Below, one piece after another: positions 897-46,148 of a stretch of 64,000 bases of DNA. Positions within the stretch are counted from its first letter, which is position 1. Every line of letters begins with the position of its first letter. The position numbers were made by a program, and so were the translations under genes. The stretch is from Candidatus Ratteibacteria bacterium (GTDB taxonomy: Bacteria > Ratteibacteria > UBA8468 > B48-G9 > DTJG01), in the NCBI GenBank assembly GCA_049971295.1, contig JBMFLH010000002.1, forward strand, positions 15,240-79,239, read 5' to 3'. The notes beneath the pieces are model-generated. The model was not told the DNA's origin. It was given only the letters and a program-made list of their open reading frames with translations, and did no database searches.

Positions 897-1411
897 TGCC
901 AGTATTGAGAATTATTTATGAAAGACAGGGTGTTGCCAGGTTTATATCCGTCAATTACATTGGTAAAATTTTTGAAAGAGCAATGAGAAGATTACAGATA
1001 AATTTGGAATTTTCTTATGGATATAGCCGCAGGGTTAGGATGACTCTTGGTCCGCCTGTTGCGGTTGGTATTTCTGGTGTTAACGAGGTGATTGACATAC
1101 ATGTGAAAGATAAAAATATTTCTCCTGATTTTATCAAAAACAGTTTGAATGAGATTCTACCTGAAGGTTTGAAGATTACAGGATGTCGTTATCTCATGGA
1201 TGGCGAAAAGTCACCACCTGAAATCAAGAAAGCACGATATGTGATTAGAGGATTTGCTGATATTACGGGCAATATCCCGGAGTCATGGAATGTCATCGGT
1301 AAAAATTCAGACATGATTGAAATTGAGATCTGGATTGAAAAATTTAGACACAGGGACCTTTTTGATATTTTTGGCACATCCTGCCTGATAGAAAGAAAAT
1401 TGATTTTTTGA
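896..1411 (+). CDS. DUF2344 / TIGR03936-like radical-SAM-linked protein
   Basis: Motif pattern ARFISVNYIGKIFERAMRRLQINLEFSYGYSRRVRMTLGPPVAVG matches the conserved core of the DUF2344 family. The start overlaps the upstream stop (TGATG). Confidence 0.45.
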   Translation: MPVLRIIYERQGVARFISVNYIGKIFERAMRRLQINLEFSYGYSRRVRMTLGPPVAVGISGVNEVIDIHVKDKNISPDFIKNSLNEILPEGLKITGCRYLMDGEKSPPEIKKARYVIRGFADITGNIPESWNVIGKNSDMIEIEIWIEKFRHRDLFDIFGTSCLIERKLIF

Positions 1412-1428
1412 GTAAATTCAGTATAATT
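1400..1428 (+). promoter_or_regulatory. Sigma70-like promoter TTGATT-17nt-TATAAT upstream of the sugar-acid operon
   Basis: TTGATT at 1400-1405, a 17-nt spacer and TATAAT at 1423-1428. An AGGAG RBS and the ATG at 1470 follow about 40 nt downstream. Confidence 0.4.
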
Positions 1429-1469
1429 TACTTAGATGTTTCCTGTTGCACGCTAATCCAGGAGCAATA

Positions 1470-2249
1470 ATGTCAATGAGATTTTCAATTTCAAAGAAGC
1501 ATGGCTTTGAAAAAAAGATCGTTTCACCGGGAAATTCTGACCTTAAATTCCTTTCGTTTAGTTATTTGTTTTCTGTATCTTCGCTCGAGTTTGAACAAAA
1601 CACTGAAGACGAAGAATGGTTATGGCTTATTATATCAGGAAAAATTAATGTTATGATAGGAGAGAATTGTTTCTGTATGGAAAGAAAGGAAGTGTTTAAT
1701 GACAAACCAGTTTCTTTATATATCCCTGCAGGAACGAAATATGCCATGAAATCTGAGGGGTTTTCAGAAGCAGTGGCAGTCTCTGCACCATCTGAAAGAA
1801 CATTTTCTCCTGTTTTTATTTCATCTGACGATATAAAAGTTCAAAGGGCAGGAAAATTGAATTATCAACGTTCAATTTTTAATATCGTGCCCCAGAATTT
1901 CCCTGCTTCCAAAATTATCGCAGGCGAGACAATTCATGATACTGGGCACTGGTCCTGTTTTCCGCCGCATAAGCATGATGAAGATAAAATGCCAGAAGAA
2001 AGCAAACATGAGGAACTATATTTCTTCAAATGTGAACCTGAAAAAACAGGCTTTGGAATGATGCGTGTTTACGACGACACACAGGATATTGCATTTCCAA
2101 TTCTTTCCAACGATGTCATTACTATTCCAAAAGGTTATCACCCAGTAAGTGTGATACCCGGTCATAAACTTTATTATTTCTGGGCGCTTGCTGGTGAAAA
2201 ACGGGCATTTCAAAGACACACACATCCGGATTACCTTGAGTATGAATAA
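1470..2249 (+). CDS. iolB: KduI/IolB-family cupin sugar isomerase, closest to 5-deoxy-glucuronate isomerase IolB
   Basis: Motifs SCFPPHKHDEDKMPEESKHEELYFF and IPKGYHPV resemble the IolB YPPHKHD...PEES...VP.GYHPV signature recalled from memory. Start assigned to the ATG at 1470, 7 nt after an AGGAG RBS; the track ORF begins at an upstream TTG at 1446. Confidence 0.6.
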   Translation: MSMRFSISKKHGFEKKIVSPGNSDLKFLSFSYLFSVSSLEFEQNTEDEEWLWLIISGKINVMIGENCFCMERKEVFNDKPVSLYIPAGTKYAMKSEGFSEAVAVSAPSERTFSPVFISSDDIKVQRAGKLNYQRSIFNIVPQNFPASKIIAGETIHDTGHWSCFPPHKHDEDKMPEESKHEELYFFKCEPEKTGFGMMRVYDDTQDIAFPILSNDVITIPKGYHPVSVIPGHKLYYFWALAGEKRAFQRHTHPDYLEYE

Positions 2250-2258
2250 AGGGGGCAT

Positions 2259-3086
2259 ATGAACAGGGAAAATATAGATTTATTTAATCTTAACGGAATG
2301 AGTGCTGTTGTAACTGGAGGAGCAGGAGTACTTGGATTCAGCATATGTACAGGACTGGCAGGTGCAGGAGCGTCTGTTGCCATCGCAGACATGAGAAATT
2401 TTAAAGAAGCAGCAGAACAATTAAAGAAAAAAGATCTTGATGCAGAAGGATTTTACATTGATGTACTGAAAAAAGACAAAATTATTGAGTGTGCGGAAGA
2501 GATTATGCAGAAATATAAAAAAATCGATATTCTTGTTAACTGTGCTGGAGGAAACTTAAAGGAAGCAACAACCTCTCCTGAACTAAGTTTTTTTGATCTT
2601 CCTCTTGAAGGTCTTGAAAAGGTTGTAGCGCTGAATTTATTCGGGGGAGCGATACTTCCATCTCAAGTATTTGGAAGGGAAATGGTAAAAAATCCTGATG
2701 GGGGGTCCATTATCAATATATCCTCCATGAATGCTTTCAGACCGCTGACGAGAATTCCTGGTTATTCTGCAGCAAAAGCAGCAGTAAGTAATTTTACCCA
2801 ATGGCTCGCAGTGCATTTTGCTATGGAATACAACAAACTGTTAAGGGTTAATGCAATAGCGCCTGGTTTTTTTCTTACTCAACAAAATCGGTATCTTCTT
2901 ACAGATGAAAACAATAATCTCACACCAAGGGGCCAGTCAATTATTAACCACACTCCAATGGGAAGATTTGGTGAACCTGATGATTTAATTGGTACCTGCA
3001 TATGGCTTGCATCAAGAGCATCAAGGTTTGTTACAGGAGTCGTAATTCCAGTTGATGGTGGCTTTAACGCATATTCGGGTGTTTGA
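2259..3086 (+). CDS. SDR-family NAD(P)-dependent oxidoreductase (sugar or sugar-acid dehydrogenase-like)
   Basis: Gly-rich TGGAGVLG cofactor motif and a catalytic S...YSAAK SDR region. RBS AAGGGGG lies before the ATG. Confidence 0.75.
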   Translation: MNRENIDLFNLNGMSAVVTGGAGVLGFSICTGLAGAGASVAIADMRNFKEAAEQLKKKDLDAEGFYIDVLKKDKIIECAEEIMQKYKKIDILVNCAGGNLKEATTSPELSFFDLPLEGLEKVVALNLFGGAILPSQVFGREMVKNPDGGSIINISSMNAFRPLTRIPGYSAAKAAVSNFTQWLAVHFAMEYNKLLRVNAIAPGFFLTQQNRYLLTDENNNLTPRGQSIINHTPMGRFGEPDDLIGTCIWLASRASRFVTGVVIPVDGGFNAYSGV

Positions 3087-3109
3087 TTTTTAACAGAAAG
3101 GAGCAGAAA

Positions 3110-4597
3110 ATGAAAAAAGCAAATATTGCGATTATTGGAATGGAAGTAATGGGAAGAAGCCTTGCACTTAATATGGAAAGCAAAGGTTATGTTGTGGCGG
3201 TTTATAACAGAACAGCAGAAAAAACAAAGGCGTTTGTAGAAGGTCCTGCCAGAGGTAAGAATATTATCCCTGCATATGAATTGAAAGACCTGGTTGATTC
3301 TCTTGAAAGTCCAAAAAAGATTATGCTAATGGTAAAAGAAGGCCAGCCAGTGGATAACTTTATAGAAACGCTTCTCCCTTACCTGAAGCCAGGAGATCTT
3401 ATTATTGATGGGGGTAATTCATTCTTTAAGGACACAATCAGAAGAAACAAAATGCTGTCAGAAAAAGGGATTCTTTTTATTGGAACAGGCGTTTCAGGAG
3501 GAGAAGAGGGTGCACTGAAAGGACCTGCTATTATGCCTGGAGGACAGAAGGAAGCATATGACCTTGTAGAGAAAATATTCAGGGATATTGCGGCAAAGGC
3601 ATATGACGGTGAGCCGTGTGTTGATTACATAGGCCCTGATGGAGCAGGGCACTTTGTGAAAACCATTCATAATGGAATTGAGTACGGTGATATGCAGTTG
3701 ATTGGCGAGGTCGTTTGGTTTTTTAAAAACATTGGAATGAAAGCAGATGAAATTGCTGACATTATGGCAAAATGGAATGATAAGGACGATAGTTTGAGGT
3801 CATACCTGATAGAAATCACTGCTGACAGTATGAAACAGAAACATCAGGGGTCTGACGAATTTCTTGTTGACAGGGTTGCTGACATTACGAGAATGAAAGG
3901 GACTGGTACATGGACTGTTCATAGCGCACTGGAACTATTGGTGCCGATTCCAACGATTGCTGCAGCAGTATTTTCAAGGGAAATGTCTCAGGATAAAGAT
4001 TTGCGACTTGCGATGGCAAAAAAATTAATAATACCATTCGGCAAATTCAATGGTGACAGAAAAGAAATTATTGAAACAGCTCACGATGCACTGTACATAG
4101 CCAAGATTTCGTCGTATGCTCAGGGAATTGCTCTGCTTCAAGCTGCTTCTAAAGAATACAATTTTCAATTGAATATTGGCAGAATTGCAAAGATATGGCG
4201 TGCAGGATGCATCATCAGGGCTCAATTTCTTGATGAGATTACCAAAGCGTATGAATCTGACCCTGACCTTCCCAATCTTATTGCTGCGCCAAAATTTGCC
4301 AGTTTCGTCGAAGCCAACGCATGGAAACTTGCAAAATTCATTGATGTGGCGCACCAGTGTGGAGTGCCTGTTCTGGCTATGAGCGGTTCGCTTGATTACA
4401 TTATGCAGCTTACATCACCTGTGATGCCATCTGCTCAGGTTTCTGCTCTTCAAAGAGATTACTTCGGTGCCCATGGTTATTTCAAAATTGGTGGGCCGAA
4501 TGACCCTGAACTTGTTGTAAATGAACAGGGAAAGGTGCGTGAATTCCATACCGAATGGTTGCTCCCAGGAAGACCAGAAAGAGAAATTACAAAGTAA
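3110..4597 (+). CDS. gnd: 6-phosphogluconate dehydrogenase, decarboxylating
   Basis: N-terminal IAIIGMEVMGRSLALN Rossmann motif, GTGVSGGEEGA, and the full-length C-terminal 6PGD domain. Start placed at the ATG at 3110, after an AAAGGAG RBS. Confidence 0.85.
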   Translation: MKKANIAIIGMEVMGRSLALNMESKGYVVAVYNRTAEKTKAFVEGPARGKNIIPAYELKDLVDSLESPKKIMLMVKEGQPVDNFIETLLPYLKPGDLIIDGGNSFFKDTIRRNKMLSEKGILFIGTGVSGGEEGALKGPAIMPGGQKEAYDLVEKIFRDIAAKAYDGEPCVDYIGPDGAGHFVKTIHNGIEYGDMQLIGEVVWFFKNIGMKADEIADIMAKWNDKDDSLRSYLIEITADSMKQKHQGSDEFLVDRVADITRMKGTGTWTVHSALELLVPIPTIAAAVFSREMSQDKDLRLAMAKKLIIPFGKFNGDRKEIIETAHDALYIAKISSYAQGIALLQAASKEYNFQLNIGRIAKIWRAGCIIRAQFLDEITKAYESDPDLPNLIAAPKFASFVEANAWKLAKFIDVAHQCGVPVLAMSGSLDYIMQLTSPVMPSAQVSALQRDYFGAHGYFKIGGPNDPELVVNEQGKVREFHTEWLLPGRPEREITK

Positions 4598-4650: not shown

Positions 4651-5691
4651 ATGTTTGAAAAACTTGTAAAACATAAATTGCAGGAAGATCCGCAAGAATA
4701 TTTAAAAACGTTTAAAAGAACAAGAGATTTTCTTGTGGCAATTGATACGGATGGATGTATTGCTGATAACATGAATGCTAAACAGATGTTAATATTCCAT
4801 CCGTTATACATGGAATTTTATCAACTGTGGGAAATTGAGTCCTACTTCAGAGAGGTTGCAGAATTTTACAATCTTTTTTCTGTTCACAGGGGTAGCAACA
4901 GGTTTATTGCTGTCAGATTAACATTGATTGCTTTAAGCAACCGGCAGGATGTGCGGACTGAAGTAAACAAACTGAATGTGACTCTGCCAGAAGCTGAATC
5001 TGTTGACCAATATATTGAATTCTGCAGAAAGAGACACTGTGGCATGGGAAATGTTTCTCTGGACCAATTTCTCTCAACACGACCTTTTGATTTCGAACTT
5101 TATAAACTATCAGGATGGAGTCAGGCGGTTAATAAGGCACTTGGCTGTATTGTTGATAAAATTCAACCTTTTGAAAATGTGAGGGAGTGTCTTGAAATAA
5201 TTTACAATCACGCAGACATTGCTGTGATTTCTCAAACTCCTCATGAAGATTTATTTAATTACTGGAATACTCACGGTCTTTTGAAATATGTAAAAATGAT
5301 CTGTGGCCAGGAGATGGGGAGCAAAGCGCATCATATAGAGATGTTAAAAAAGATCGGTAAATACTCTGATGATGCAGTGCTAATGATTGGCGATGCTCCT
5401 GGAGATTTTGAGGCGATTAAGAAAAATCACGGACTTTTTTATCCTGTTACGCCTGGAAGTGAAAATGAATCATGGAAAAAATTTCCAGAGGCGTTCGAAC
5501 TGTTTTTGATGGGTAAGTATCAGGTGGAATTGGAGAAACAATTGATTAATGAATTTTCAAGAAAATTACCTGATACGCCACCGTGGCAAAAACAGGATTA
5601 TGACCATATCGCTTCTTACAGAAAAAATCAGGAAATCAGGAAATCTCTTTATAAACAATTTAATCCTGATGGGAGGTTACTTATTTTATGA
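4651..5691 (+). CDS. HAD-superfamily hydrolase (putative sugar-phosphate phosphatase)
   Basis: HAD motif I-like AIDTDGCI and motif IV MIGDAPGD. The start could instead be the ATG at 4555, which overlaps gnd by 43 nt. Confidence 0.45.
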   Translation: MFEKLVKHKLQEDPQEYLKTFKRTRDFLVAIDTDGCIADNMNAKQMLIFHPLYMEFYQLWEIESYFREVAEFYNLFSVHRGSNRFIAVRLTLIALSNRQDVRTEVNKLNVTLPEAESVDQYIEFCRKRHCGMGNVSLDQFLSTRPFDFELYKLSGWSQAVNKALGCIVDKIQPFENVRECLEIIYNHADIAVISQTPHEDLFNYWNTHGLLKYVKMICGQEMGSKAHHIEMLKKIGKYSDDAVLMIGDAPGDFEAIKKNHGLFYPVTPGSENESWKKFPEAFELFLMGKYQVELEKQLINEFSRKLPDTPPWQKQDYDHIASYRKNQEIRKSLYKQFNPDGRLLIL

Positions 5692-6974
5692 AAATAGGCA
5701 CAGGCAATAGGAATGAGGTTCTGTCTGAACAAAAATTTATCTCTATTTTGCAGGATATCGTGATTTCTCTTGGACTGGAGAAAAAGCAAAAGGTTCTGGC
5801 CATTATACCTGATGGTACACGTTCAGGTCCAACTGGAACTGTTTTCAGAACCATTGTTGACACTCTTTACCAGCGGGTCAAAAAGCTGGATTTTATGATC
5901 GCTCTTGGAACTCATCCAGTAATGGTGCGGGAAAACATTGAAAAATTACTTGGTATTAACTGTGAGAAGTTCCAGGAAAAATATCCGCATACGCAGATAT
6001 TTCAACATTGCTGGGATGATGAGAAAACAATAGTGGAAATTGGCACCATTACAGCCAGCGAAATTTTGAAAATTTCTCATGGCCTTTTGAACGAAGATAT
6101 TCCTGTGACAATTAACAGAGCTATACTTGATTATGACCACATAATCCTTGCAGGACCTGTTTTTCCTCACGAGGTTGTTGGATTTTCTGGCGGATATAAG
6201 TATCTTTTTCCTGGAGTTTCGGGCCCTCATTTTCTTCACAAGTTTCACTGGCTTGGCGCTTTGATTACAAATCCTAAAATCAATGGCGTGAAAAATACTC
6301 CTGTAAGAGAAGCAATAAACAGAGCAGTTTCTTTTATAAGAAAGCCAATCACACAGATATGTTACGTCGTTAAGGAAAAAAAGGTCTATGGAATATTTGC
6401 AGGAGACAACGAGGCATGGTCTGCTGCCGCAGATCTATCATCACAGTTGAATATTGAATATGTTGACAGGAATTATAAAGAGGTGCTTTCAATAGCGCCA
6501 GTGATGTATGATGACATATGGACTGCTGGCAAATGTATGTATAAACTTGAACCGATTGTTTCTGATGGAGGAAACTTAATTATCTACGCTCCAAATATTA
6601 CAGAGGTTTCTTATACCCACGGAAAGTATATCAGGCAGGTCGGATATCATACGCGTGATTATTTTCTCAAACAATGGGAAAAATTTAAGAATTTTCCGGG
6701 TGGAATTCTCGCTCATTCCACTCATGTCAAGGGTATCGGTACTTTTATCAATGGAATTGAAACTCCAAGAATCAATGTTTATCTTGCAACTGGCATCAGT
6801 AAGGAGGTGTGCCAGCAGATTAACCTTGGCTACATCAATCCCATTGAAATCAATATTGATGATTTCCGAAAAAAACAGGATACTCTTGTTGTGGAAAATG
6901 CAGGAGAGGTGCTATTCAGGTTGAAAAGTGGCCAGATTCCTGACATCGACAAACTTTACGAGAAACAAAAATGA
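5688..6974 (+). CDS. LarA-family (DUF2088) nickel-pincer-nucleotide-dependent racemase/epimerase homolog
   Basis: IIPDGTRSGP, ALGTHPVM and VFPHEVVGFSGGYKYLFPGVSGPHFLHKFH align with the LarA PD.TRP / GSH / PHFFAGFSGGRKS active-site motifs, and the catalytic Lys and His are retained. ATGA overlap with the upstream gene and a GGGAGG RBS. Confidence 0.65.
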   Translation: MKIGTGNRNEVLSEQKFISILQDIVISLGLEKKQKVLAIIPDGTRSGPTGTVFRTIVDTLYQRVKKLDFMIALGTHPVMVRENIEKLLGINCEKFQEKYPHTQIFQHCWDDEKTIVEIGTITASEILKISHGLLNEDIPVTINRAILDYDHIILAGPVFPHEVVGFSGGYKYLFPGVSGPHFLHKFHWLGALITNPKINGVKNTPVREAINRAVSFIRKPITQICYVVKEKKVYGIFAGDNEAWSAAADLSSQLNIEYVDRNYKEVLSIAPVMYDDIWTAGKCMYKLEPIVSDGGNLIIYAPNITEVSYTHGKYIRQVGYHTRDYFLKQWEKFKNFPGGILAHSTHVKGIGTFINGIETPRINVYLATGISKEVCQQINLGYINPIEINIDDFRKKQDTLVVENAGEVLFRLKSGQIPDIDKLYEKQK

Positions 6975-8341
6975 GTTATTTATTCAAAAAACAATATCCG
7001 GATTTTAGATTTTTTGAAAGTTCATTAAGAAAATATGGTGACGATTATTATTTTGTTGCTGAAAAAAATGGAAAAATGTATCTGGTTGTGGGAAACAAAT
7101 CCTTTCAGTTTATTGAATATGAGAAATCATCTGAAATATTAAGGAAAACATTTTCATTTCTCACGCCGGTCTGTGCGGGCATGAAGAATTCTTTTGGTTT
7201 TGGAGACAGGACGGGTTTTGCAACTCCAGGGCACATCCGTGCGGTAAAGGGAAGTGAGTTTTTCCCGATTTTTGCACAGCAATCAGCAAGAGAACTTGAA
7301 AGAACAGGAAGAACATTCAAACAGGTTCTTGACGATGTGATATTTTGGTGTTTTGCCTTCGGCTGGACAGATGGTTTTGGAGCAGATGCTGACCATGCGA
7401 AAAGTTTTGATGTTTTACAACAGGCGATTTCTGCTGGTTACACATTTTTCACCATTGACCCTTCTGATAAAATCAAAAACCCATCAGATACATCATCATG
7501 TGAAAGGCATGGTATTGACAGATACATCAAGGAATACTCTGGTAAGAATTTTGCATGTAGTGGCTTTTCTTTTGTTTTCACTGAAGAAATGGTTTCTGAC
7601 CTCGCCATTACATATGGGAGAGCTATTGATTTTATCGAGGAGTGTTATTCATTTATTTCTGACAAAAAAAAGAATTTTGATTTTGAAATTTCGGTCGATG
7701 AAACAAAAGTTCCAACAACTCCTTATGCTCATGCGTTTATTGTTATGGAACTCCAAAAGAGAAATGTTGAATTTAATGGTTTGGCTTTGCGTTTTCCTGG
7801 AAGGTTTGAAAAAGGGATCGACTACATTGGAAATATGAATGAACTTGCCAGAGAACTTGAAATTCATAACGAGATACGGAATCATCTTGGACCGTATAAG
7901 ATTTCACTTCACTCTGGAAGCGACAAATTCAGTATTTATGGTACATTCAAAAAAATACTTGGAAGCATGTTTCATGTGAAAACATCAGGGACATCATGGA
8001 TTCAGTCAATGAAAACCGTTGCAGCAGTTGACAGAGAATTTTTTATAAAGTGTTTGGAAGTGGCGCTGAAGGATTTTGAAAAAAATTCAAAGTCATATGA
8101 AATTTCGGCAGACATTTCAAAATTGAATTTAGAAAAAATAAGAAATGAAAATCTTGATGAAATATTTTCCGATCATCATATCAGGCAGTTAATTCATATC
8201 AGTTATGGAAGTATTATTGGAAGCGCGCCTGAAAGTCAAAAAATGAAACAACACTACTACACCCTGATTGAAAAAAACTATGAACTTTATTTTCGTTTTG
8301 TTGAAGAACACCTGAAAAAACATATTCAACTGCTTATATGA
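6971..8341 (+). CDS. Putative sugar epimerase resembling the tagaturonate/fructuronate epimerase (UxaE) family
   Basis: Motifs SFGFGDRTGFATPGH and LHSGSDKFS are reminiscent of the UxaE family, recalled rather than searched. 456 aa, translationally coupled (ATGA) to the LarA homolog. Confidence 0.35.
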   Translation: MSYLFKKQYPDFRFFESSLRKYGDDYYFVAEKNGKMYLVVGNKSFQFIEYEKSSEILRKTFSFLTPVCAGMKNSFGFGDRTGFATPGHIRAVKGSEFFPIFAQQSARELERTGRTFKQVLDDVIFWCFAFGWTDGFGADADHAKSFDVLQQAISAGYTFFTIDPSDKIKNPSDTSSCERHGIDRYIKEYSGKNFACSGFSFVFTEEMVSDLAITYGRAIDFIEECYSFISDKKKNFDFEISVDETKVPTTPYAHAFIVMELQKRNVEFNGLALRFPGRFEKGIDYIGNMNELARELEIHNEIRNHLGPYKISLHSGSDKFSIYGTFKKILGSMFHVKTSGTSWIQSMKTVAAVDREFFIKCLEVALKDFEKNSKSYEISADISKLNLEKIRNENLDEIFSDHHIRQLIHISYGSIIGSAPESQKMKQHYYTLIEKNYELYFRFVEEHLKKHIQLLI

Positions 8342-8351
8342 AAGGAGAAAT

Positions 8352-10274
8352 ATGAACAAAAAGAGATTTCCTTATAGCCAGTTGCCTGAAAGTGAAATTA
8401 AAAGACTTCAGGAATTTAGTAATCTCTGTCGAAGGGATGTGCTTACAATGACAACCCTTGCAAAGTCAGGACATCCAGGTGGTTCAATGTCTGCTATGGA
8501 AATTTACAATGTTGTTTTTCATTATGCAGCAGTCAACCCTGACGCAGTAGATGACCCTGAGAGAGATAAAATCATTATCAGTTTTGGTCATACTTCTCCT
8601 GGTGTATATGCTGTGTTAGGAAGGATTGGTTTTTTTGATCTTGATACAGCCATTGCCTCTTTCAGACAAACAGGTAGTATTTTTGAAGGGCACATTGTAA
8701 GAAAAGTGCCGGGAATTGAATGGGGTACAGGTAATCTGGGACAGGGCCTATCTGCTGGTTGTGGTTTTGCTCTGATTGATAAAATAAAAAATCGTGATGC
8801 TTTTACATTTGTGTTGATGAGTGATGGTGAACAGACAAAGGGCCAGGTGGGCGAGGCTCGTCGTTTTGCAATCAAATACAAACTTAATAATCTCAGAGTC
8901 ATAATTGATTATAACAGAATCCAGATCAGCGGTTGCATTTTTGACATTATGCCCAACAACATTAAAGAAAACTATCTTGCTGATGGATGGGAAGTAATGG
9001 AGACCGATGGTCATGATATAGCAGGTCTTTATGACACGGTGAGGAGAAGTTTAGAAATTGATAAACCTGTTTGTATCATTGCCAGCACAGTGATTGGAAA
9101 AGGTGTTTCTTTTATGGAAGGTAAATGTGCTTATCATGGCAAGACCCTTGGAGAGGAAGAATATGATAAGGCAGTTAAAGAATTGGGTTTAGAAGGAGAA
9201 CTGGAAAAATATAAAGAAATGAGAAAGAAAAAAAAGTATTCATTTCCTGAAAGAAAATTTGATATACCAATTTCGATCAACATGGGTGCCCCGCGTACAT
9301 ATGAATCAGGTACAAAAATCGATAACAGGACCGCATTTGGAAATGCGCTTCTGGACCTTGGTATCGTGAACGAAGATAACAAGGAAAATCCTATTATTGT
9401 CTTTGATTGCGACCTTGCGAGTTCCGTAAAAACAGATTTATTCGCAAAGCGATTTCCTGAAAGATTTTTTCAATGCGGTGTTCAGGAGCATCACGCAGCG
9501 ACTGTATCCGGAGCTGCTTCTGTTGAGGGCGCTATCAGTTTTTTTGCAGATTTTGGAGTTTTCGGAGTGGATGAAACCTACAATCAGCACAGATTGAATG
9601 ACCAGAATTATACAAACTTAAAGATCGTGTGTACACATCTTGGGCTTGACGTGGGAGAAGATGGAAAAACTCATCAGTGTATTGATTATGTGGGACTATT
9701 CAGAAATGTTTTTGGAATAAAACTTATTATACCTGCAGATGCCAATCAGACCGATAGAGTGATAAGGTATGTTGCGGTAAAGTCCGGGAATTATTTTGTT
9801 GGGATGGGCCGGTCCCATACGCCGGTTATAACAACCCCTGACGGAAAACCATTTTTTGGAGAAAACTACATATTTGAATACGGCAAAGCAGATGTATTAA
9901 GAGATGGGAAAGATGGTTTCATTTATACAATGGGCGCTCTGGTACCAAGAGCAGTTACAATTTCTGACCGGCTCAGGCAGGATGGAATCAGTATTGGTGT
10001 TATAAATTGTTCATGTCCTGTTGAAATTGATAAGGACGCATTGGAACTCGGCATCAAAACAGGTTTGATAATATCATACGAAGACCATGTAGTTGATTCA
10101 GGACTTGGTATGACAATTGCGGCATATATCGCTGAAAAACAAATTGGCGTGAAATTCCACAGGTTTGGTATCAGAAAATATGGTAGTTCAGGAACACCTG
10201 ATGAACTTTATGCAGAACATGGACTTGACCCTGAAACAATGATATCGTTTATCAAAAACATTATTAAAAGATAA
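8352..10274 (+). CDS. tkt: Transketolase, full-length single polypeptide
   Basis: Motifs SGHPGGSMS, ISFGHTSPGVYAVLG, GNLGQGLSAGCGFA and MSDGEQTKGQ correspond to TktA ThDP-binding motifs. RBS AAAGGAG. Confidence 0.8.
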   Translation: MNKKRFPYSQLPESEIKRLQEFSNLCRRDVLTMTTLAKSGHPGGSMSAMEIYNVVFHYAAVNPDAVDDPERDKIIISFGHTSPGVYAVLGRIGFFDLDTAIASFRQTGSIFEGHIVRKVPGIEWGTGNLGQGLSAGCGFALIDKIKNRDAFTFVLMSDGEQTKGQVGEARRFAIKYKLNNLRVIIDYNRIQISGCIFDIMPNNIKENYLADGWEVMETDGHDIAGLYDTVRRSLEIDKPVCIIASTVIGKGVSFMEGKCAYHGKTLGEEEYDKAVKELGLEGELEKYKEMRKKKKYSFPERKFDIPISINMGAPRTYESGTKIDNRTAFGNALLDLGIVNEDNKENPIIVFDCDLASSVKTDLFAKRFPERFFQCGVQEHHAATVSGAASVEGAISFFADFGVFGVDETYNQHRLNDQNYTNLKIVCTHLGLDVGEDGKTHQCIDYVGLFRNVFGIKLIIPADANQTDRVIRYVAVKSGNYFVGMGRSHTPVITTPDGKPFFGENYIFEYGKADVLRDGKDGFIYTMGALVPRAVTISDRLRQDGISIGVINCSCPVEIDKDALELGIKTGLIISYEDHVVDSGLGMTIAAYIAEKQIGVKFHRFGIRKYGSSGTPDELYAEHGLDPETMISFIKNIIKR

Positions 10275-10286
10275 CAGGGGGTTAAA

Positions 10287-10490
10287 ATGAAATGTATTAA
10301 TAAAGACACCAATCTAAAAAATTGCAGTTGCACATATGTTTCATGTGGCAAACGTGGTATGTGTTGTGAATGCGTTGCCTATCACAGAGACAATGGTGAA
10401 ATTCCGGGTTGTTTTTTTCCGCCTGAAGCAGAAAGAGGTTATGATAGGTCAATAAAAAATTTTATCAATGCATGGAATAGAAAAGTGTAA
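10287..10490 (+). CDS. Small (67 aa) cysteine-rich protein of unknown function; 9 Cys, likely metal-binding
   Basis: Strong AGGGGG RBS 8 nt before the ATG, placed directly after tkt in the same operon. Cys pattern CSCTYVSCGKRGMCCECVAYH...GC. Confidence 0.5.
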   Translation: MKCINKDTNLKNCSCTYVSCGKRGMCCECVAYHRDNGEIPGCFFPPEAERGYDRSIKNFINAWNRKV

Positions 10491-10497
10491 ATCATTG

Positions 10498-11424
10498 CTA
10501 ATACCATAGCCAGAGGTATCTCCATCGTTTGCTATAGAGTGTTGCGACATCTGGTTTTCTTATAATTATGAGTGTTTCGATATTTCTCCTTGCTGATTCT
10601 GTGTAATTGAACGAGCCAGTTAACACAATTTTCTCATCAATAATCGTGAACTTATCATGAATATTTTCCACGAAACAATCTTTTTTTATATGGAAAAAGT
10701 GAAATCTTTTCAGAAAATCGTATTCGTTTGATGCTGGATTTTGGGAACCTTCAAAAATTCCATAGACCTGGGTACCTTTCAGTCCCACTTTGCAAATTTC
10801 TTCTGCAATTGAATCAGAGGTAAATGAAAACATTGCGAATTTTACATTTTTTTCAGCCCTGCCTATTTCATTTCTTATAATTTGAGCACAATCAGTCGCA
10901 GGGGAAAAATATATTTCAACAGTTTGATCTTTATAAGTTTTGCAATCCATTGAACCATTCCACAAAAGCAAAAAATTTTTCGTAAAAAACTTTCCTATAT
11001 TTTCATTATCAAAAAATACAATATTATTTGAGTCCCACATCAGGGACGATTCACTAAAATTGGCAGAACCAGCAAATACATATCTTTCATCAATCACGAT
11101 GAATTTTGCGTGCAAATGGCAGGATTTTTTATCCCATCGTTTTATTTTTGTTTGTAATGATTTGAAAGAAGCATTTGCCGGTGGAAATTGCAACAGTATT
11201 TTTACGTCAATCCCTCTTTTAGAAAGTTTTTCAAGGATTTCAAGACCTTCGCTCCATCCGAATGTATAAGTCGAGACATAAACTAATTTTTTTGCCTGCA
11301 ATAATCTATTTATGATTAATCTATCAACTTTTTGGGAAGGAGAAAAATATACTTTCACATCTGAAAAACAGGCGATGGTATGCAATAACAACAGGAGAAG
11401 GGAAAATTGACTGAATTTTTTCAT
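10498..11424 (-). CDS. Secreted phospholipase D-family protein with two HKD motifs (PLD/Nuc-like)
   Basis: N-terminal signal peptide MKKFSQFSLLLLLLHTIACFS. HKD motifs HAKFIVIDERYVFAGSANFS and HDKFTIIDEKIVLTGSFNYT. Confidence 0.7.
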   Translation of the reverse strand: MKKFSQFSLLLLLLHTIACFSDVKVYFSPSQKVDRLIINRLLQAKKLVYVSTYTFGWSEGLEILEKLSKRGIDVKILLQFPPANASFKSLQTKIKRWDKKSCHLHAKFIVIDERYVFAGSANFSESSLMWDSNNIVFFDNENIGKFFTKNFLLLWNGSMDCKTYKDQTVEIYFSPATDCAQIIRNEIGRAEKNVKFAMFSFTSDSIAEEICKVGLKGTQVYGIFEGSQNPASNEYDFLKRFHFFHIKKDCFVENIHDKFTIIDEKIVLTGSFNYTESARRNIETLIIIRKPDVATLYSKRWRYLWLWY

Positions 11425-11501: not shown

Positions 11502-12578
11502 ATGAAACTTATCAACTGGGAGGAAATTTTGAAAGCCGCTATATTCCATGGTCCAGAAAAAATTACTGTAGAAAATTGGGAATCGCCAGTGTGCGCCGAG
11601 GATGAGATTTTGATGAAAGTAAATTATTGCGCAATATGCGGTACTGATGTTAGAACCTTTTTCCACGGACACAAGAAGGTGATTCCTCCTGCTATTATCG
11701 GGCATGAAATCACAGGAGAGGTTGTTGAAATCGGGAAAGATGTAAAAACAAATTTGAAAATTGGTGATAGAATCACGCCAGTTACTTCCATTGGTTGCGG
11801 TGCGTGCCGATTATGTCAGAAAGGACTTTATAATTTGTGTCCTGATACAAAGGCGCTTGGTTATTACTGGGCTGGAGGATTTGCTGAATATATGATTATT
11901 CCAGCGCCTGCTGTAAAACAGAGTGCCTGGGTACTTTTGCCTGAAAATGTTTCTCTGCTTGAAGGAGCACTTGTTGAACCTCTTTCCTGTGTCATCAATG
12001 CTCAAAATTATCTGAACATACAGGATGGAGATACAGTTGTGATTTATGGTGGAGGCCCCATTGGATTCATGCATGCCGTTATGGCTCAGGCGTCAGGAGC
12101 AGAAACTCTTATTATGATTGACCCTGCCTTTGATCGTCTTAAAAAATTTGCAACGAACTTTAACAATATGATTTTGATAGATCCAAATACTGAAAATACT
12201 GTTTCAAAAATCAAAGATATTACCAGAAATTTTGGTGCGGATGTGATTATTACAGCCTGTCCTGCAAAGAAGGCGCAGATTGAGGCGTTTTCTATCGCGG
12301 CGCCGCATAGTAGAATCAGCTTTTTTGGAGGGCTTCCAAAAGATGATTCAATGATTACAATTGACAGCAATCTGATTCATTATTTGGAAATTTCAGTTTT
12401 TGGTGCATTTGCATCAAATAGAAAGGATTATCAGAAGGCAGTGGATTTAATATCTTTGAGGAAAATAGACCCATCAAAATTTATTACTGAAGTTATTTCT
12501 CTTGAAGAGATTGAAAAAGGGATTCGTCTTGTGAAAAGTGGCAGTGTATTAAAGGTTGTTGTGAAGGTACAGGAGTAA
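11502..12578 (+). CDS. Zinc-dependent alcohol/polyol dehydrogenase (MDR family, sorbitol/threonine dehydrogenase-like)
   Basis: CAICGTDV and GHEITGEVVEIG zinc-binding motifs, a structural-zinc Cys cluster CGACRLCQKGLYNLC, and a GGGPIG NAD motif. Confidence 0.8.
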   Translation: MKLINWEEILKAAIFHGPEKITVENWESPVCAEDEILMKVNYCAICGTDVRTFFHGHKKVIPPAIIGHEITGEVVEIGKDVKTNLKIGDRITPVTSIGCGACRLCQKGLYNLCPDTKALGYYWAGGFAEYMIIPAPAVKQSAWVLLPENVSLLEGALVEPLSCVINAQNYLNIQDGDTVVIYGGGPIGFMHAVMAQASGAETLIMIDPAFDRLKKFATNFNNMILIDPNTENTVSKIKDITRNFGADVIITACPAKKAQIEAFSIAAPHSRISFFGGLPKDDSMITIDSNLIHYLEISVFGAFASNRKDYQKAVDLISLRKIDPSKFITEVISLEEIEKGIRLVKSGSVLKVVVKVQE

Positions 12579-12581
12579 ATT

Positions 12582-13373
12582 ATGAAATCAGAGGTTTTGA
12601 AAGACAGAATTACGATTATCACAGGAGCTGGAAGGGGTCTTGGAGAGGCATTGAGTTATGGATTTGCAGAAGAGGGCGCAATCATATGCCCATGGGACAT
12701 TGACGAAAACAATCTTGACAGGGTTGCAGAGGAATTGAAAAAACTTAACAGGTATGGAAAAAAGGCAAAACTTGATATTACTGACGAAGGTCAAGTGAGA
12801 AAGGAAATCGAAGCGATTGAATCAGAATTCGGGAAAATTGATATTTTAATCGCAAATGCAGGCATTCTGAGATCTTATGAAATTACAGATTTTCCGGAAG
12901 ACGACTGGAGAAAAATCATTGAGGTAAATCTAACCGGATATTTTATCTGCGCAAAATATGTCGCAAGGGTGATGAAGAAACAACGCAGCGGAGTGATTAT
13001 TCAAATTAACTCAAAGTCAGGTAAAAAAGGAAGTTACTGGAATTGCGCGTATGCAGCAAGCAAATTTGGTGGTATTGGTCTTACACAGAGTATCGCTCTT
13101 GACCTTGCGCCGTTTAATATCAGAGTTAATGCGATATGTCCGGGAAATATTCTTGAAAGCCCTTTGTGGCAGACAAGTTTGTTCCAGCAGTATGCAAAAA
13201 AGTGGGGCATTTCAATAGAGGAAGTTAAGAAGAAATATATTGATCAGGTACCTCTCGGTAGACCGTGCACATACAGAGATGTTATTAATGTAGCTGTTTT
13301 TCTTGCGAGTGATTATGCCAGTTACATGACAGGTCAGGCAATTAATGTGACTGGTGGCCAGGAAATGAGATGA
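12582..13373 (+). CDS. SDR-family dehydrogenase, sorbitol-6-phosphate 2-dehydrogenase (SrlD)-like
   Basis: TGAGRGLG motif. The C-terminal half (IQINSKSGKKGS...YAASKFGGIGLTQSIALDLAP...YIDQVPLGR...INVTGGQ) closely resembles E. coli SrlD as recalled from memory. Confidence 0.6.
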   Translation: MKSEVLKDRITIITGAGRGLGEALSYGFAEEGAIICPWDIDENNLDRVAEELKKLNRYGKKAKLDITDEGQVRKEIEAIESEFGKIDILIANAGILRSYEITDFPEDDWRKIIEVNLTGYFICAKYVARVMKKQRSGVIIQINSKSGKKGSYWNCAYAASKFGGIGLTQSIALDLAPFNIRVNAICPGNILESPLWQTSLFQQYAKKWGISIEEVKKKYIDQVPLGRPCTYRDVINVAVFLASDYASYMTGQAINVTGGQEMR

Positions 13374-14488
13374 AACCATCCAGGGATGAGATTTTCCTGA
13401 AAAAATGTCTTTCTCTTGCAAAAAATGGGCTGGGTCTGGTCAGCCCAAATCCAATGGTTGGCGCTGTTGTTGTAAGAGGAAATCATATCGTTGGACAGGG
13501 CTGGCACAAAGCATATGGGCTACCTCATGCAGAAGTGGAAGCATTGAAAATGGCAGGTTCAAGGGCAAAAAATGCTACAATTTATGTAAATCTTGAACCT
13601 TGCTGTCATTATGGAAAAACCCCTCCTTGTACTGAGGCAATCATCAAGTCAGGTATAAAAAAGGTTGTTTTCTGCACCATTGACCCTAATCCTTTTGTAA
13701 ACGGGAAAAGTGTTGTCGTGCTGAAAAATCATGGAATTGAAGTGAGACATGGATTACTGGAAAGTCAGGCCATGCAATTAAACGAAGCGTATTTTACATA
13801 TATGAAAATGAAAAGACCTTTTATTGCCCTGAAGTGGGCAATGAGTATCGATGGCAAGATCGCAGATGCATCTGGTAATTCAAAATGGATTACACGTGAA
13901 GATGCAAGAACATTTAATAAAAATCTGAGATTTGAATATGATGCAATAATGGTTGGAGTAGAAACTGTTATCAAGGATGACCCTGGACTTAATTATTCTG
14001 TTCCCTATGGAGTGGGAAAATCTCTTTTGAAAAACAAACGTTATACAAAGGTTATTCTTGACACATCTGTTAGATGTCCAAGCGATGCGAAAGTTTTCTT
14101 AAACGCTTCTGACAGGGTGATTGTTTTTACGGCCAGAGATACAAAACCATCACGGATAAAATACCCGGAAAATGTTGAATTTGTTGAAGTTGATAAAAAT
14201 TCTGCCGGATTTCTTGATATTCAGCAAGTAATTCAAAATTTGTATGAAAGGGGCATTGGAAAATTATTTGTTGAGGGCGGTACAAAGGTTTTGACATCCT
14301 TTTATGATTACGAACTCTTTGATAAAATTTATGTATTCGTTGGGGGGAAAATCATTGGTGGAGATGCTGTATATGTTCCGCTGAAAGGCAAAATCATACC
14401 GATGACAATGTCAAACATTGAACTTAAAGAGGTCGTTAGGTTTTCTAACGATGTATTGATTGTTCTGGAAAAATGTTCTCAGGAATAG
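13370..14488 (+). CDS. ribD: Bifunctional riboflavin-biosynthesis deaminase/reductase RibD
   Basis: CMP/dCMP deaminase motif HAEVEAL...EPCCHYGKTPPC plus a C-terminal RibD reductase domain. ATGA overlap with the upstream gene. Confidence 0.85.
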   Translation: MKPSRDEIFLKKCLSLAKNGLGLVSPNPMVGAVVVRGNHIVGQGWHKAYGLPHAEVEALKMAGSRAKNATIYVNLEPCCHYGKTPPCTEAIIKSGIKKVVFCTIDPNPFVNGKSVVVLKNHGIEVRHGLLESQAMQLNEAYFTYMKMKRPFIALKWAMSIDGKIADASGNSKWITREDARTFNKNLRFEYDAIMVGVETVIKDDPGLNYSVPYGVGKSLLKNKRYTKVILDTSVRCPSDAKVFLNASDRVIVFTARDTKPSRIKYPENVEFVEVDKNSAGFLDIQQVIQNLYERGIGKLFVEGGTKVLTSFYDYELFDKIYVFVGGKIIGGDAVYVPLKGKIIPMTMSNIELKEVVRFSNDVLIVLEKCSQE

Positions 14489-15096
14489 TTGAAGAAACAG
14501 GTGTTGTTATTGAAAAAAAACCGCTTGGACAGTCATCTGTTATTGGTATCAGTGCCATAAAAGTTTTTGATGATTTGCAACAAGGAGACAGTATCAGTGT
14601 GGATGGCGTGTGTTTGACTGTTGAAAAAATCACTCAACGTATATTTTATGCAACAATCTCCTATGAAACAATGAAATTGACAACCCTCGGGCACATCAGA
14701 ACCGGAGCAAGAGTTAATCTTGAACGGGCATTGAAATACGGTGGCAGGGTAGGGGGACATTTTCTTTCAGGACATATTGATTTTACTGGCACGCTTTCAG
14801 AAAAAAAAGTTGAAAAAGACCACTGTGTTATCAGGATACAGATACCTGCTTCTTTTATAAAATACTTTGTTCGAAAATGTTCTGTGGGAATTGATGGGAT
14901 TTCTCTCACTGTGGCAGATATCGCGGGCAATCAAATTATCGTATGGCTAATTCCATACACAGTTGAGAATACCACAATTAGGGATAAACGTGTGGGAGAT
15001 AAGGTGAATGTAGAAACGGATATTATTGTGAAATCTGCAATGGAAGACAGAACATACAGGGAAAAATATGAAATCAGCAAGGAAGCAATTTTCTGA
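14473..15096 (+). CDS. ribE: Riboflavin synthase alpha subunit
   Basis: N-terminus MFSGIVEETG and a duplicated lumazine-binding repeat. Confidence 0.85.
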   Translation: MFSGIVEETGVVIEKKPLGQSSVIGISAIKVFDDLQQGDSISVDGVCLTVEKITQRIFYATISYETMKLTTLGHIRTGARVNLERALKYGGRVGGHFLSGHIDFTGTLSEKKVEKDHCVIRIQIPASFIKYFVRKCSVGIDGISLTVADIAGNQIIVWLIPYTVENTTIRDKRVGDKVNVETDIIVKSAMEDRTYREKYEISKEAIF

Positions 15097-16324
15097 AATC
15101 AGCACTGTGGAAAAGGCAATAGAGGATTTGAAAAATGGAAAATTTATCATTGTTGTTGATGATGCAAAAAGAGAAAATGAAGGAGATTTGATCTGTTCTG
15201 CTCAAAAGGTCACCCCTCAGCACATTAATTTTATGGCTAAACATGCCAGGGGATTGATATGTGTGGCATTAACCCAGGAAAGAATAAGAGAGTTAGACCT
15301 ATCTCCGATGGTTGAGGATAATACAGCGCTTCATCAAACCGGTTTTACAGTTTCTGTTGATGCAAAAAAAGGAGTGACAACAGGAATTTCGGCGTATGAT
15401 AGAGCCAGGACGATAAAACTTTTGATCAATCCTGCCACAAAGCCAGAAGACCTTGCAAGACCAGGGCATGTGTTTCCCATTCAGGCAAAACAGGGAGGCG
15501 TACTTGTTCGTGCCGGGCATACTGAAGCAGCAGTTGATCTTGCAAGAATGGCAGGACACTATCCTGCAGGTGTAATATGCGAAATCATGGCAGACGATGG
15601 TTCCATGGCACGAATGCCAGAACTGATGAAATTCGCGAAAAAACATAATCTGAAAATCATTACGATTGCGGATTTAATAAAGTTCAGGAAGATGAGGGAA
15701 AAACTCATTGAAAGGGTTTTATCTGTTGAGTTGCCAACAAAATTTGGAACTTTTGACCTTTATCTTTACAGAGATAAAATTGAAAACAATAATCACCTGG
15801 CTCTGGTAAAGAAACTGCCTGATAATAAAAAATTACCTCTGGTCAGGGTTCACTCCCAGTGCCTCACTGGAGACATTTTTCATTCTTTTCGATGTGATTG
15901 TGGGGAGCAATTGCACAAAAGTCTTGAAATGATTTCCCAGCAGGGAGGTGCGCTGATATATTTGCCCCAGGAAGGCAGGGGAATAGGACTTGCAGATAAA
16001 CTGAGGGCGTATAAACTTCAGTCAGAGAAAAATCTTGATACTGTTGAGGCAAATCTTTATCTTGGTTACCCGGATGATTTGAGGGATTATGGCATTGGCG
16101 CTCAGATTCTTCTTGATTTGGGATTGACCAACATTCGGCTCCTGACCAATAATCCCAGAAAAATCATTGGTCTTGAGGGTTATGGAATACGTATCATTGA
16201 ACGGGTGCCCATCGAGGTGCCGCCAAATCCTCATTCTGCTAAATATCTTGAAACAAAAAAATTGAAAATGAAACATTTGATTGGAAATATAAGTTTATTT
16301 CACAACAAAGGGAGGAAAAAATGA
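15068..16324 (+). CDS. ribBA: Bifunctional 3,4-dihydroxy-2-butanone-4-phosphate synthase / GTP cyclohydrolase II
   Basis: DHBP synthase N-domain ([13 protein letters not shown]) and GTP cyclohydrolase II C-domain (CDCG...QEGRGIGL). Confidence 0.9.
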
Positions 16325-16785
16325 AAATTTTTGAAGGACATCTTTCTGCAGAAGGAAAACGTTTTGGAATCGTGGTAAGCAGGTTTAATGAATTTTTGAC
16401 AAAAAATCTTCTCGATGGTGCGCTGGATTGTCTTAAAAGACACGGTGCATCAGAAGAAAGTATTGATATTGTATGGGTACCGGGTTCTTTTGAGATTGGT
16501 TTTGCAGCAAGAAAAATGGCATCTTTGAAAAAGTATCATGCTTTGATATGTCTTGGAGTGATTATTCGTGGAGCAACACCGCATTTTGAATATGTGGCAG
16601 GACAGGTAACAAGAATATTAGGTCAGATTAATAGTGAGGGAATTGTCCCAGTCACTTATGGGATTATCATCGCAGACAGTCTTGAACAGGCGACAGAAAG
16701 AGTCGGAACAAAAATGGGAAATAAGGGCTGGCACGCTGCACTTTCAGCCATTGAAATGGCAAATGTTAATGATTTACTGAAATGA
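16321..16785 (+). CDS. ribH: 6,7-dimethyl-8-ribityllumazine synthase
   Basis: RFGIVVSRFNEF, VWVPGSFEIGFAARK and ICLGVIIRGATPHFEYV. Confidence 0.9.
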   Translation: MKIFEGHLSAEGKRFGIVVSRFNEFLTKNLLDGALDCLKRHGASEESIDIVWVPGSFEIGFAARKMASLKKYHALICLGVIIRGATPHFEYVAGQVTRILGQINSEGIVPVTYGIIIADSLEQATERVGTKMGNKGWHAALSAIEMANVNDLLK

Positions 16786-17216
16786 AAAAGACACTTCGGA
16801 GTGCAAGAGTTGCTGCCTTAAAGGCCTGTTATCAACTTGATATTCAAAATTCAATGGTTGAAGAAAAGGTTGCTGATGTGCTGAAAGATGAAGAAACAAA
16901 CCAGCAAATTTATCGACTTGCCAGGGCGATTGTAGTGGGAGTGATAAAAAATTTGCGATTCATTGATGGATTGCTTGCAAAATACTGTAGAAACTGGGAT
17001 ATTTCGAGGTTGAGTTATATTGACCGTAACATTTTAAGAATTGCTGTGTATGAAATAGCTTTTGTTCCTGAAGTCCCTGATGTTGTAGCAATCAATGAGG
17101 CGATTGAAATTTCTAAAATTTATAGTTCTCCGGAGGCCGGGAAATTTATCAATGGAGTCCTTGATAGTATAAGAAAGGAACTTGTTTCCATCAGAACCCA
17201 ACAAAGCGCTGGTTGA
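16782..17216 (+). CDS. nusB: Transcription antitermination factor NusB
   Basis: NusB-like ARVAALKACYQLD...NWDISRLSYIDRNILRIAVYE pattern and the conserved ribH-nusB arrangement. Confidence 0.8.
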   Translation: MKKTLRSARVAALKACYQLDIQNSMVEEKVADVLKDEETNQQIYRLARAIVVGVIKNLRFIDGLLAKYCRNWDISRLSYIDRNILRIAVYEIAFVPEVPDVVAINEAIEISKIYSSPEAGKFINGVLDSIRKELVSIRTQQSAG

Positions 17217-24376: not shown

Positions 24377-24378
24377 CT

Positions 24379-40998: not shown

Positions 40999-41633
40999 AA
41001 ATACTTGTCACAGCGGGACCAACAAGAGAATATATTGACCCGGTTAGATTTATCAGCAATCCTTCCACAGGAACTCTTGGTTATTTAATTGCGAAAAAAG
41101 CAAAGGAAAAAGGTCATCAAGTGGTAATTGTTTCAGGCCCCTGTGACCTGCCAGAACTTAAGGGGGTTGAAAAAATTCAGGTAGAATCAGCCTTGCAGAT
41201 GAAACATGAGGTAGAGAAAATATTTCCAGAAATGGATGTCCTGGTGATGACTGCAGCAGTTTCTGATTGGAGGCCAGCAAAGAAGTTTCCTGAAAAATTG
41301 AAACTCAAAAGATCCTGGACATTAAAACTTGTGCCAAATCCGGATATTTTAAAAGGTGTTTCAAAGAAAAAGAAAAAGGAACAAATTATTGTCGGTTTTG
41401 CTCTGGAAAGCAATAATGTGCTGGAAAATGCAAAAAGGAAATTAATTGATAAGAAACTTGACATACTGGTTGCAAACACAGTAGAAAATTTTGGGAAATT
41501 TCCAGGACATGGTGAAATCTTTGTTATTTATTCTGATGGTAGAATAAAGAACTGCACTGGTTTTTCCAAGAAGGTTCTTGCCTCTTTTCTTTTAAAAGAA
41601 ATTGAACAGTTTCAGCAAAGGAAATTACGATGA
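40995..41633 (+). CDS. coaB: Phosphopantothenate-cysteine ligase (standalone CoaB domain)
   Basis: [22 protein letters not shown] matches the CoaB (DFP C-terminal domain) signature. 212 aa, with no CoaC domain. Confidence 0.75.
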
Positions 41634-42370: not shown

Positions 42371-42380
42371 AAGGAAAAAG

Positions 42381-44735: not shown

Positions 44736-44748
44736 ACAGAGGTGTGTC

Positions 44749-46140: not shown

Positions 46141-46148
46141 CTTCAGTC

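Follow-up and report, generated by a model that had tools for sequence, protein, structure and literature searches.

The window analysed here is a stretch of 64,000 nt from a Candidatus Ratteibacteria metagenome-assembled genome (MAG; assembly GCA_049971295.1, contig JBMFLH010000002.1, positions 15,240 to 79,239 of the forward strand), with a G+C content of ~38%. Near its start is a gene for a homologue of the lactate racemase LarA (LarAH), which sits among genes for sugar-acid enzymes. The LarAH gene (5688..6974, + strand) begins with ATG and encodes a 428-aa protein of LarAH group 19 and GntE type, predicted to be a hexonate C2-epimerase that depends on the nickel-pincer nucleotide (NPN). 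Seven closely spaced genes make up the operon, with -4 to +53 nt between them, and LarAH comes fifth. The first of these (1446..2249, +; the gene caller starts it at 1470) encodes a cupin of the KduI/IolB family, which scores 212 bits on Pfam KduI and 189.5 bits on NCBIfam IolB, against a cut-off of 205. It is followed by a short-chain dehydrogenase/reductase (SDR) of the D-mannonate oxidoreductase (fructuronate reductase) subfamily (2259..3086, +; 344 bits on NCBIfam PRK08277, cut-off 281) and by Gnd, a decarboxylating NADP-dependent 6-phosphogluconate dehydrogenase (3083..4597, +; 595 bits on NCBIfam NF006765, cut-off 413) whose start is likely the ATG at 3110. The fourth gene (4651..5691, +) encodes an uncharacterised HAD-superfamily protein of 346 aa, and its end and the beginning of LarAH share 4 nt. 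The LarAH stop is in turn overlapped by 4 nt by the start of the gene for UxaE, tagaturonate/fructuronate epimerase (6971..8341, +; 467 bits on Pfam UxaE), and transketolase (8352..10274, +; 955 bits on NCBIfam NF004556, cut-off 575) is the last large gene of the operon. Pfam and NCBIfam scans of the operon detected neither a kinase nor UxaC. The original prediction had described LarAH as embedded in a sugar operon, and the SDR, Gnd, UxaE and transketolase genes bear this out, making the operon one of the sugar-acid type.

There are several lines of evidence that the window LarAH belongs to the LarA superfamily. The protein matches Lar_N (Pfam PF09861) at 82.5 bits (E 3e-23), far above the gathering score of 23.3, and its best solved relative is PDB entry 4NAR, matched by the single sequence at E 7.8e-63 over aa 10-414. 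The 4NAR match rises to E 3.6e-86 when a 17-sequence profile is used, and homology to 4NAR, as judged from sequence comparison, is far beyond chance. The same profile also matches 2YJG, 5HUQ and 6D6Z. The structure of L. plantarum LarA (5HUQ) is aligned over residues 49-317, and the residue equivalences given below were read from this profile alignment. All three motifs that had been quoted as LarA active-site elements, PDGTRSGP, GTHP and FPHEVVGFSGGYK, are present, and the Lar_N and 4NAR homologies back the family to which they had been attributed. PDGTRSGP (aa 41-48; 5808..5831, +) contains D42, equivalent to the catalytic D72 of LarA, and R45, equivalent to R75, which binds the phosphate of NPN. 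GTHP (aa 74-77; 5907..5918, +) supplies H76, the counterpart of the catalytic acid/base H108. FPHEVVGFSGGYK (aa 159-171; 6162..6200, +) contains H161, which corresponds to the catalytic H174, and K171, which corresponds to K184, the lysine that tethers NPN. Two further motifs complete the set, namely KFHW (aa 185-188; 6240..6251, +), where H187 is equivalent to the nickel ligand H200, and WTAGK (aa 278-282; 6519..6533, +), where K282 is equivalent to the catalytic K298. The NPN-binding set of LarA (R75, K184 and H200) is therefore complete in the window LarAH as R45, K171 and H187, and the catalytic set (D72, H108, H174 and K298) as D42, H76, H161 and K282.

These seven residues (D42, R45, H76, H161, K171, H187 and K282) are invariant in the 17-sequence alignment and in 79 of 79 orthologues from genome contigs. 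An alignment to L. plantarum LarA had been named in the original prediction as the check on equivalents of His108, His200 and Lys184; these are H76, H187 and K171, each conserved in all 79 orthologues. Because the seven LarA residues are invariant in the window LarAH and its orthologues, the family and the active site had been read correctly. Hence, by its sequence, the window LarAH is a LarA-superfamily protein whose nickel-pincer active site is intact. The protein is not confined to this assembly: a 100% identical one is annotated in public Candidatus Ratteibacteria MAGs, and an identical LarAH is also encoded on contig JBNAXE010000007.1 of GCA_049699515.1. L. plantarum LarA and the window LarAH are members of the same superfamily with the same seven catalytic and NPN-binding residues, but they differ in the substrate pocket, where F175/F176 of LarA are replaced by E/V and Y294/Q295 by W/T, and the window gene lies outside a lar operon. 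Lactate racemase LarA sensu stricto was rejected on the basis of this E, V, W, T pocket and of a score of 66.9 bits on NF033504, against a cut-off of 460. An assignment as malate racemase was dropped for a score far under the curated cut-off.

LarA homologues have been divided into groups, and the reference sequences and signature residues of these groups (Dataset S2 of PMC7583248) were compared with the window LarAH by BLASTP. The protein has the substrate-pocket signature of groups 18-20, comprising E162-V163, W278 and an S344-T345-H346-x-K348 helix. Specifically, E162-V163, within FPHEVVGFSGGYK, is the "EV/S" loop signature of the hexonate-epimerase groups 18-20 (PMC7583248), and W278 is their alpha-11 signature. 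The highest identities are to group 19: 47% to Truepera Trad_0660, 42% over 380 aa to GntE1/LarAH19 of C. glutamicum, and 37% to MODMU_3050. Identity is lower to T. maritima GntE2, of group 20 (33%), and to three group 18 members (26-30%). In a neighbor-joining tree, the window clade falls within group 19, with Trad_0660 as its neighbour. The group 19 logo signature (20 positions; an E-V loop, alpha-11 W-T-A-K, and alpha-14 G/T-L/I-A-S-T-H-R/K) is found in the window LarAH, with E162, V163, W278, T279, K282, S344, T345, H346 and K348 all matching. The sole departure is G281 instead of Ala, and Ala occurs here in 14 of the 79 orthologues. Given the highest identities, the placement in the tree and the agreeing pocket residues, the window LarAH is assigned to LarAH group 19, a described group with a biochemically characterised representative.

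How closely does the window LarAH resemble individual members of these groups? GntE1 (C. glutamicum, group 19, "G2E2" in PMC7583248) shares with it D, R, H, H, E, V, K, H, W, T, K and S-T-H-x-R/K, as well as a uronate-linked gene context. The window LarAH differs from group 19 in having G281 for Ala (the position of LarA V297), as in group 20, and K348 for the Arg of group 19, as in Truepera. There is also a difference in gene linkage: actinobacterial members of group 19 often adjoin larB, larE and larC (33%, 33% and 19%), whereas the window clade does not and is instead linked to Gnd, the SDR and the HAD-like gene. GntE2 (TM0442, the protein of 4NAR) is a full-length homologue that shares all catalytic and NPN-binding residues with the window LarAH, but it has Ser, Asn and Met where the window protein has V163, H346 and H311. 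Group 20 was rejected, as its signature (an E-S loop, an A-A-V-I-N-R helix and an adjacent FGGY gluconate kinase) is not found here; position 163 is Val rather than Ser, and S344, T345 and H346 stand in place of V, I and N. Group 18 and the window LarAH both have the E-V loop and the W signature, but group 18 has WLGNK where the window protein has WTAGK, and it is without H311, H321 and R323.

Relatives of the window LarAH are numerous. More than 8000 database proteins match it at E <= 1e-20, and close relatives occur in at least 586 species-representative genomes. The locus counts that follow refer to the best 80 of these at least 586 relatives, which are 47-76% identical to the window LarAH and come from Omnitrophota, Planctomycetota, Verrucomicrobiota, Atribacterota, Chloroflexota, Acidobacteriota and other phyla. 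An SDR gene lies next to LarAH in 47 of the 80 loci, Gnd is clustered with it in 43 and is often directly adjacent, a HAD-like gene is nearby in 37, and UxaE is present in 18. UxaC occurs in 10 loci and an IolB-like gene in five, with no overlap between the two. This mutual exclusion fits substitution of the cupin for UxaC as the uronate isomerase; the cupin at 1446..2249 is a candidate uronate aldose-ketose isomerase in place of UxaC. A second Ratteibacteria MAG has a minimal set, KduI-SDR-Gnd-LarAH, in the same chromosomal neighbourhood. Kinases of the FGGY family are found in four related loci and PfkB kinases in four others. Some related loci also have genes of the GFO/IDH/MocA, zinc-dependent alcohol dehydrogenase, xylose-isomerase-like TIM-barrel and creatininase families near LarAH. 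These hint at inositol-type feeder routes, and the set resembles the inositol route of T. maritima.

Two gene families that adjoin LarAH in relatives deserve mention in their own right. A PFK-family gene, none of which is found in the window, is present in 20 of the 80 loci (L005:7580-8914, L019, L036, L038 and others), where it adjoins the HAD-like gene and LarAH; it scores 361 bits on PRK14072, the model of the pyrophosphate-dependent phosphofructokinase subfamily, against a cut-off of 273. It could be a hexonate or keto-uronate kinase, or a true pyrophosphate-dependent phosphofructokinase downstream of the pentose-phosphate pathway. A PdxB-like 2-hydroxyacid dehydrogenase directly adjoins LarAH in 11 of the 80 loci (L069:11074-12261, L033, L035, L043, L046, L071 and others) and is upstream of it in all but one. 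The PdxB-like protein scores 428 bits on the 4-phosphoerythronate dehydrogenase model, for which the cut-off is 434.

The HAD-like gene at 4651-5691 is a conserved partner of LarAH. In its product the DxD / S-T / K / GDxxxD catalytic set is intact, and its relatives in the 80 loci (L001-L080) are ~347 aa long, with invariant catalytic motifs and an enlarged cap domain. It has no NCBIfam match and only a weak match to Pfam HAD_2; no database assigns it a function, and a PDB sequence search gave nothing better than E ~1. An AlphaFold model (pLDDT 81) resembles only generic HAD-IA phosphatases and beta-phosphoglucomutases, with query-normalised TM-scores of 0.33-0.44. The predicted fold would therefore be that of a generic HAD-IA protein, from which no specific function follows. 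Among the 33 loci that have 5 kb or more of sequence on each side of LarAH, all 11 PFK-like genes have the HAD-like gene with them, and the HAD-like gene occurs in about half of these well-sampled loci. The idea that the HAD-like gene and an FGGY or PfkB kinase are alternatives was set aside: in the same 33 loci the two occur together once, and FGGY or PfkB occurs without HAD three times, numbers that are too small.

The operon type has precedents. The original prediction had held that no characterised LarA homologue has this operon context, and this is contradicted by the gnd-uxaRED-gntEK genes of T. maritima and by the neighbours of groups 18 and 19 listed in Table S1 of PMC7583248. T. maritima has a pectin-induced operon, aldH-pelB-gnd-uxaRED-gntEK, that leads from hexuronates to the pentose-phosphate pathway (PMC3750489), and the function of its gntE has been shown in vitro (PMC7583248). 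UxaE, an SDR fructuronate reductase, LarAH and Gnd are co-located both in T. maritima and in the window. In T. maritima, genes for an FGGY gluconate kinase and a GntR regulator lie alongside; the window operon lacks both but has HAD-like, IolB-like and transketolase genes. In Table S1 of PMC7583248, which covers three genes on each side, the neighbours of group 18 include an SDR, 6-phosphogluconate dehydrogenase, a ribokinase-family kinase, glucuronate isomerase and KduI, and those of group 19 include UxaC and an SDR. The published context of group 18 is thus much like that of the window operon (SDR, 6-phosphogluconate dehydrogenase, UxaC, KduI).

What reaction is the window LarAH likely to catalyse? 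On balance, it is probably an NPN-dependent, GntE-type C2-epimerase that interconverts D-mannonate and D-gluconate, an activity predicted from the characterised members of the family. GntE1, GntE2 and the Phytophthora enzyme LarAH15 are all NPN-dependent D-mannonate/D-gluconate epimerases (PMC7583248, PMC11770544), and 4NAR itself is one of them, namely T. maritima GntE2 (TM0442), which Desguin et al. 2020 (PMC7583248) identify as a D-gluconate 2-epimerase that depends on NPN. This assignment is favoured by the substrate-pocket signature of groups 18-20 and by the synteny with SDR, Gnd, UxaE and UxaC, which recurs across many phyla in the 80 loci. By analogy with LarA, K171 would tether NPN, H187 would be the ligand of its nickel and R45 would bind its phosphate. 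Catalysis would begin with transfer of the C2 hydride of the 2-hydroxy acid to the cofactor, as H76 or H161 removes the proton of the hydroxyl group, and the hydride would be returned to the opposite face of a transient 2-keto acid. From the composition of the operon, we infer a route in which a hexuronate would be isomerised by the IolB/KduI-like cupin, UxaE would convert tagaturonate to fructuronate, and the SDR would reduce fructuronate to D-mannonate. LarAH would then work in the direction of D-gluconate, and a kinase encoded elsewhere would phosphorylate gluconate to 6-phosphogluconate. Gnd would convert this to ribulose-5-phosphate and CO2, and transketolase would carry the carbon on into the pentose-phosphate pathway.

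There are also observations that weigh against D-mannonate/D-gluconate epimerisation. For GntE1, the closest characterised relative and the only group 19 enzyme with demonstrated epimerase activity, the Km for D-mannonate is 120 mM, and the authors doubt that mannonate is its native substrate (PMC7583248). Identity of the window LarAH to any characterised enzyme is only 33-42%. No NCBIfam model passes its curated cut-off for the protein. The best match, the group 18 model NF052594 ("putative hexonate epimerase"), was rejected at 186.3 bits against a cut-off of 500, and no group 19 model is among the NCBIfam matches. A gluconate kinase is absent from the operon even though Gnd needs the 6-phosphate, and the only FGGY kinase in the window (46149-47531) is xylulokinase-like and belongs to another locus. 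The conserved HAD-like neighbour is left without a role. Lastly, NPN would have to be supplied by larB, larE and larC genes elsewhere in the genome, since none is in the window and no larE is in the related loci.

An unlikely but live alternative is that the window LarAH is a 6-phospho-D-mannonate/6-phospho-D-gluconate 2-epimerase, with mannonate phosphorylated first and 6-phosphogluconate passed straight to the neighbouring Gnd; it is kept alive by the tight linkage to Gnd, in 43 of the 80 loci, and by the PdxB-like enzymes beside LarAH in 11, given that 4-phosphoerythronate dehydrogenase acts on the 2-hydroxyl of an omega-phospho-aldonate. The very poor binding of free mannonate by GntE1 is consistent with it. 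There is also a precedent for the activity: extracts of L. suebicus convert mannonate only after addition of ATP, via 6-phosphomannonate, and they interconvert 6-phosphogluconate and 6-phosphomannonate (PMC6978723). The genes for this 6-phosphomannonate 2-epimerase are unassigned (PMC6978723), and we found no later paper that names them. The L. suebicus activity does the same pathway job, taking mannonate derived from galacturonate to 6-phosphogluconate and Gnd, but it is known only from cell extracts, and it acts on the phosphorylated acid. On the other side, no LarA homologue is known to act on a phosphorylated substrate, and GntE2 and LarAH15 use free mannonate with kcat values of 197 and 111 s-1 (PMC7583248, PMC11770544). 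A kinase is equally required in this order of steps, and none is in the operon. No phosphate-binding subsite has been identified; the conserved R323, K/R348 and H311 are only suggestive. It is conceivable, though doubtful, that the group-19-like clade, which is very widespread and occurs mostly in uncultured phyla, supplies the 6-phosphomannonate 2-epimerase still missing from the redox-neutral galacturonate route of L. suebicus, and that the 346-aa HAD-like partner takes part in the phosphoryl-transfer step, a role proposed because no kinase is encoded in the operon.

A different sugar acid is a quite unlikely substrate. In that case the window LarAH would be an NPN-dependent epimerase of another hexonate isomer or of an aldarate, such as D-glucarate/D-mannarate. 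The authors of PMC7583248 propose a mannonate isomer or a uronic or aldaric acid for group 19, citing the high Km and the uronate context, and the genes for inositol-type routes in some related loci indicate that entry substrates vary. The operon itself argues the other way: its SDR passes the D-mannonate oxidoreductase cut-off, its UxaE makes fructuronate, the precursor of mannonate, and its Gnd consumes the gluconate skeleton, and it contains neither an aldarate dehydratase gene nor any other gene for aldarates. A very improbable reading is that the window LarAH is non-catalytic or uses a different cofactor, in an organism without NPN biosynthesis, which the original prediction had named as the implication of a genome without NPN biosynthesis genes. 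The missing cofactor genes speak for it. The original prediction had noted that larB, larC and larE are not within 64 kb, and two kinds of search agree: in essentially all window open reading frames (ORFs) of at least 110 aa there is no Pfam match to AIRC (LarB), DUF111/LarC or a LarE-type PP-loop protein, and phmmer with --max, using L. plantarum LarE (276/276 identical to 5UDQ) against all six-frame window ORFs of at least 40 aa, gave a best E of 0.4. LarE also has no phmmer match in the ORFs of the 80 related loci, within 10 kb of any of the orthologues, and the AIRC, DUF111 and LarE families are absent from three Pfam-annotated contigs (L081-L083). For LarB and LarC, the absence refers to the window and to these three contigs. 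E. coli PurE (checked against 1QCZ) was tried as a seed for LarB; it reached no LarB-named PDB entry and was not used. Absence of larBCE nearby is uninformative alone. According to Table S1 of PMC7583248, lar genes are not among the frequent neighbours of groups 18 and 20 and occur at only about a third of group 19 loci, and T. maritima encodes its [4Fe-4S] LarE elsewhere in the genome. MAGs, being incomplete, also cannot prove that a gene is absent. Above all, invariance of the NPN-binding and catalytic residues in 79 orthologues from many phyla is not expected of proteins without the cofactor, and a loss of NPN dependence is very improbable.

What are the implications of an epimerase of this type in Ratteibacteria? 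Both the enzyme group and the operon type, a Thermotoga-like route from hexuronate to the pentose-phosphate pathway, are already known, and what the window adds is a member from a Ratteibacteria MAG, that is, an example from a candidate phylum. The wider survey of loci also shows how common this GntE-type route is: it is very frequent among uncultured members of phyla such as Omnitrophota, Planctomycetota and Atribacterota. The compact seven-gene operon bears on the native substrate of group 19, on the gene for 6-phosphomannonate 2-epimerase and on the role of the HAD-like partner.

Several other features surround the operon. A promoter-like sequence, TTGATT-16-TATAAT (1400..1427, +), precedes the first gene and is weak evidence only; promoter and terminator scans found the region no richer in such sites than shuffled sequence, and an Rfam search around the operon turned up neither a riboswitch nor any other RNA element. 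Directly after the transketolase gene is a small Cys-rich ORF of 67 aa (10287-10490, +), annotated as DUF6485 in contig L081. Opposite the end of the operon is a gene for a two-domain PLD-family protein (10498-11424, -) with sub-threshold NucT-like and DrmC-like matches. Just upstream of the operon region is a gene for a family-5 solute-binding protein (54-896, +), with a DUF2344 gene in between; the solute-binding protein is also found at L081:1093-2736. An Opp/Dpp/Nik-type ABC transporter, with two permeases and two ATPases, is encoded at 22567-26399 (-). The SBP_bac_5 protein and the Opp/Nik-type transporter were considered as a nickel importer, but all NCBIfam scores are far below the cut-offs and the peptide and nickel models score about the same, which favours neither substrate.

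Elsewhere in the window, a riboflavin operon (13370-17216, +) consists of ribD and the genes for riboflavin synthase, RibBA and lumazine synthase, followed by nusB; Rfam found no flavin mononucleotide (FMN) riboswitch at the gathering score anywhere in the window. Between the genes for argininosuccinate synthase and a GNAT acetyltransferase is a 363-aa ORF without a Pfam or NCBIfam match (28936-30027, -). The neighbouring ORFs 18084-18746 and 18758-19102 (-), which are in different frames, match the C- and N-terminal halves of one pfkB-family sugar kinase, covering profile positions 126-297 and 6-94, respectively, and the split is a frameshift or an assembly error. A second sugar locus (41630-47531, +) encodes a CBM9-like protein, a 784-aa protein with NagB-like and weak PIG-L-like regions, a protein distantly similar to L-arabinose and sulfoquinovose isomerases, and the FGGY kinase, whose closest model is xylulokinase (236 bits, below the cut-off of 380). 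Finally, a zinc-dependent dehydrogenase gene is followed by an SDR gene at 11502-13373 (+). The dehydrogenase has IolM (scyllo-inosose 3-dehydrogenase) as its best match, below threshold, and this second SDR passes the sorbitol-6-phosphate dehydrogenase model with 352 bits against a cut-off of 307.

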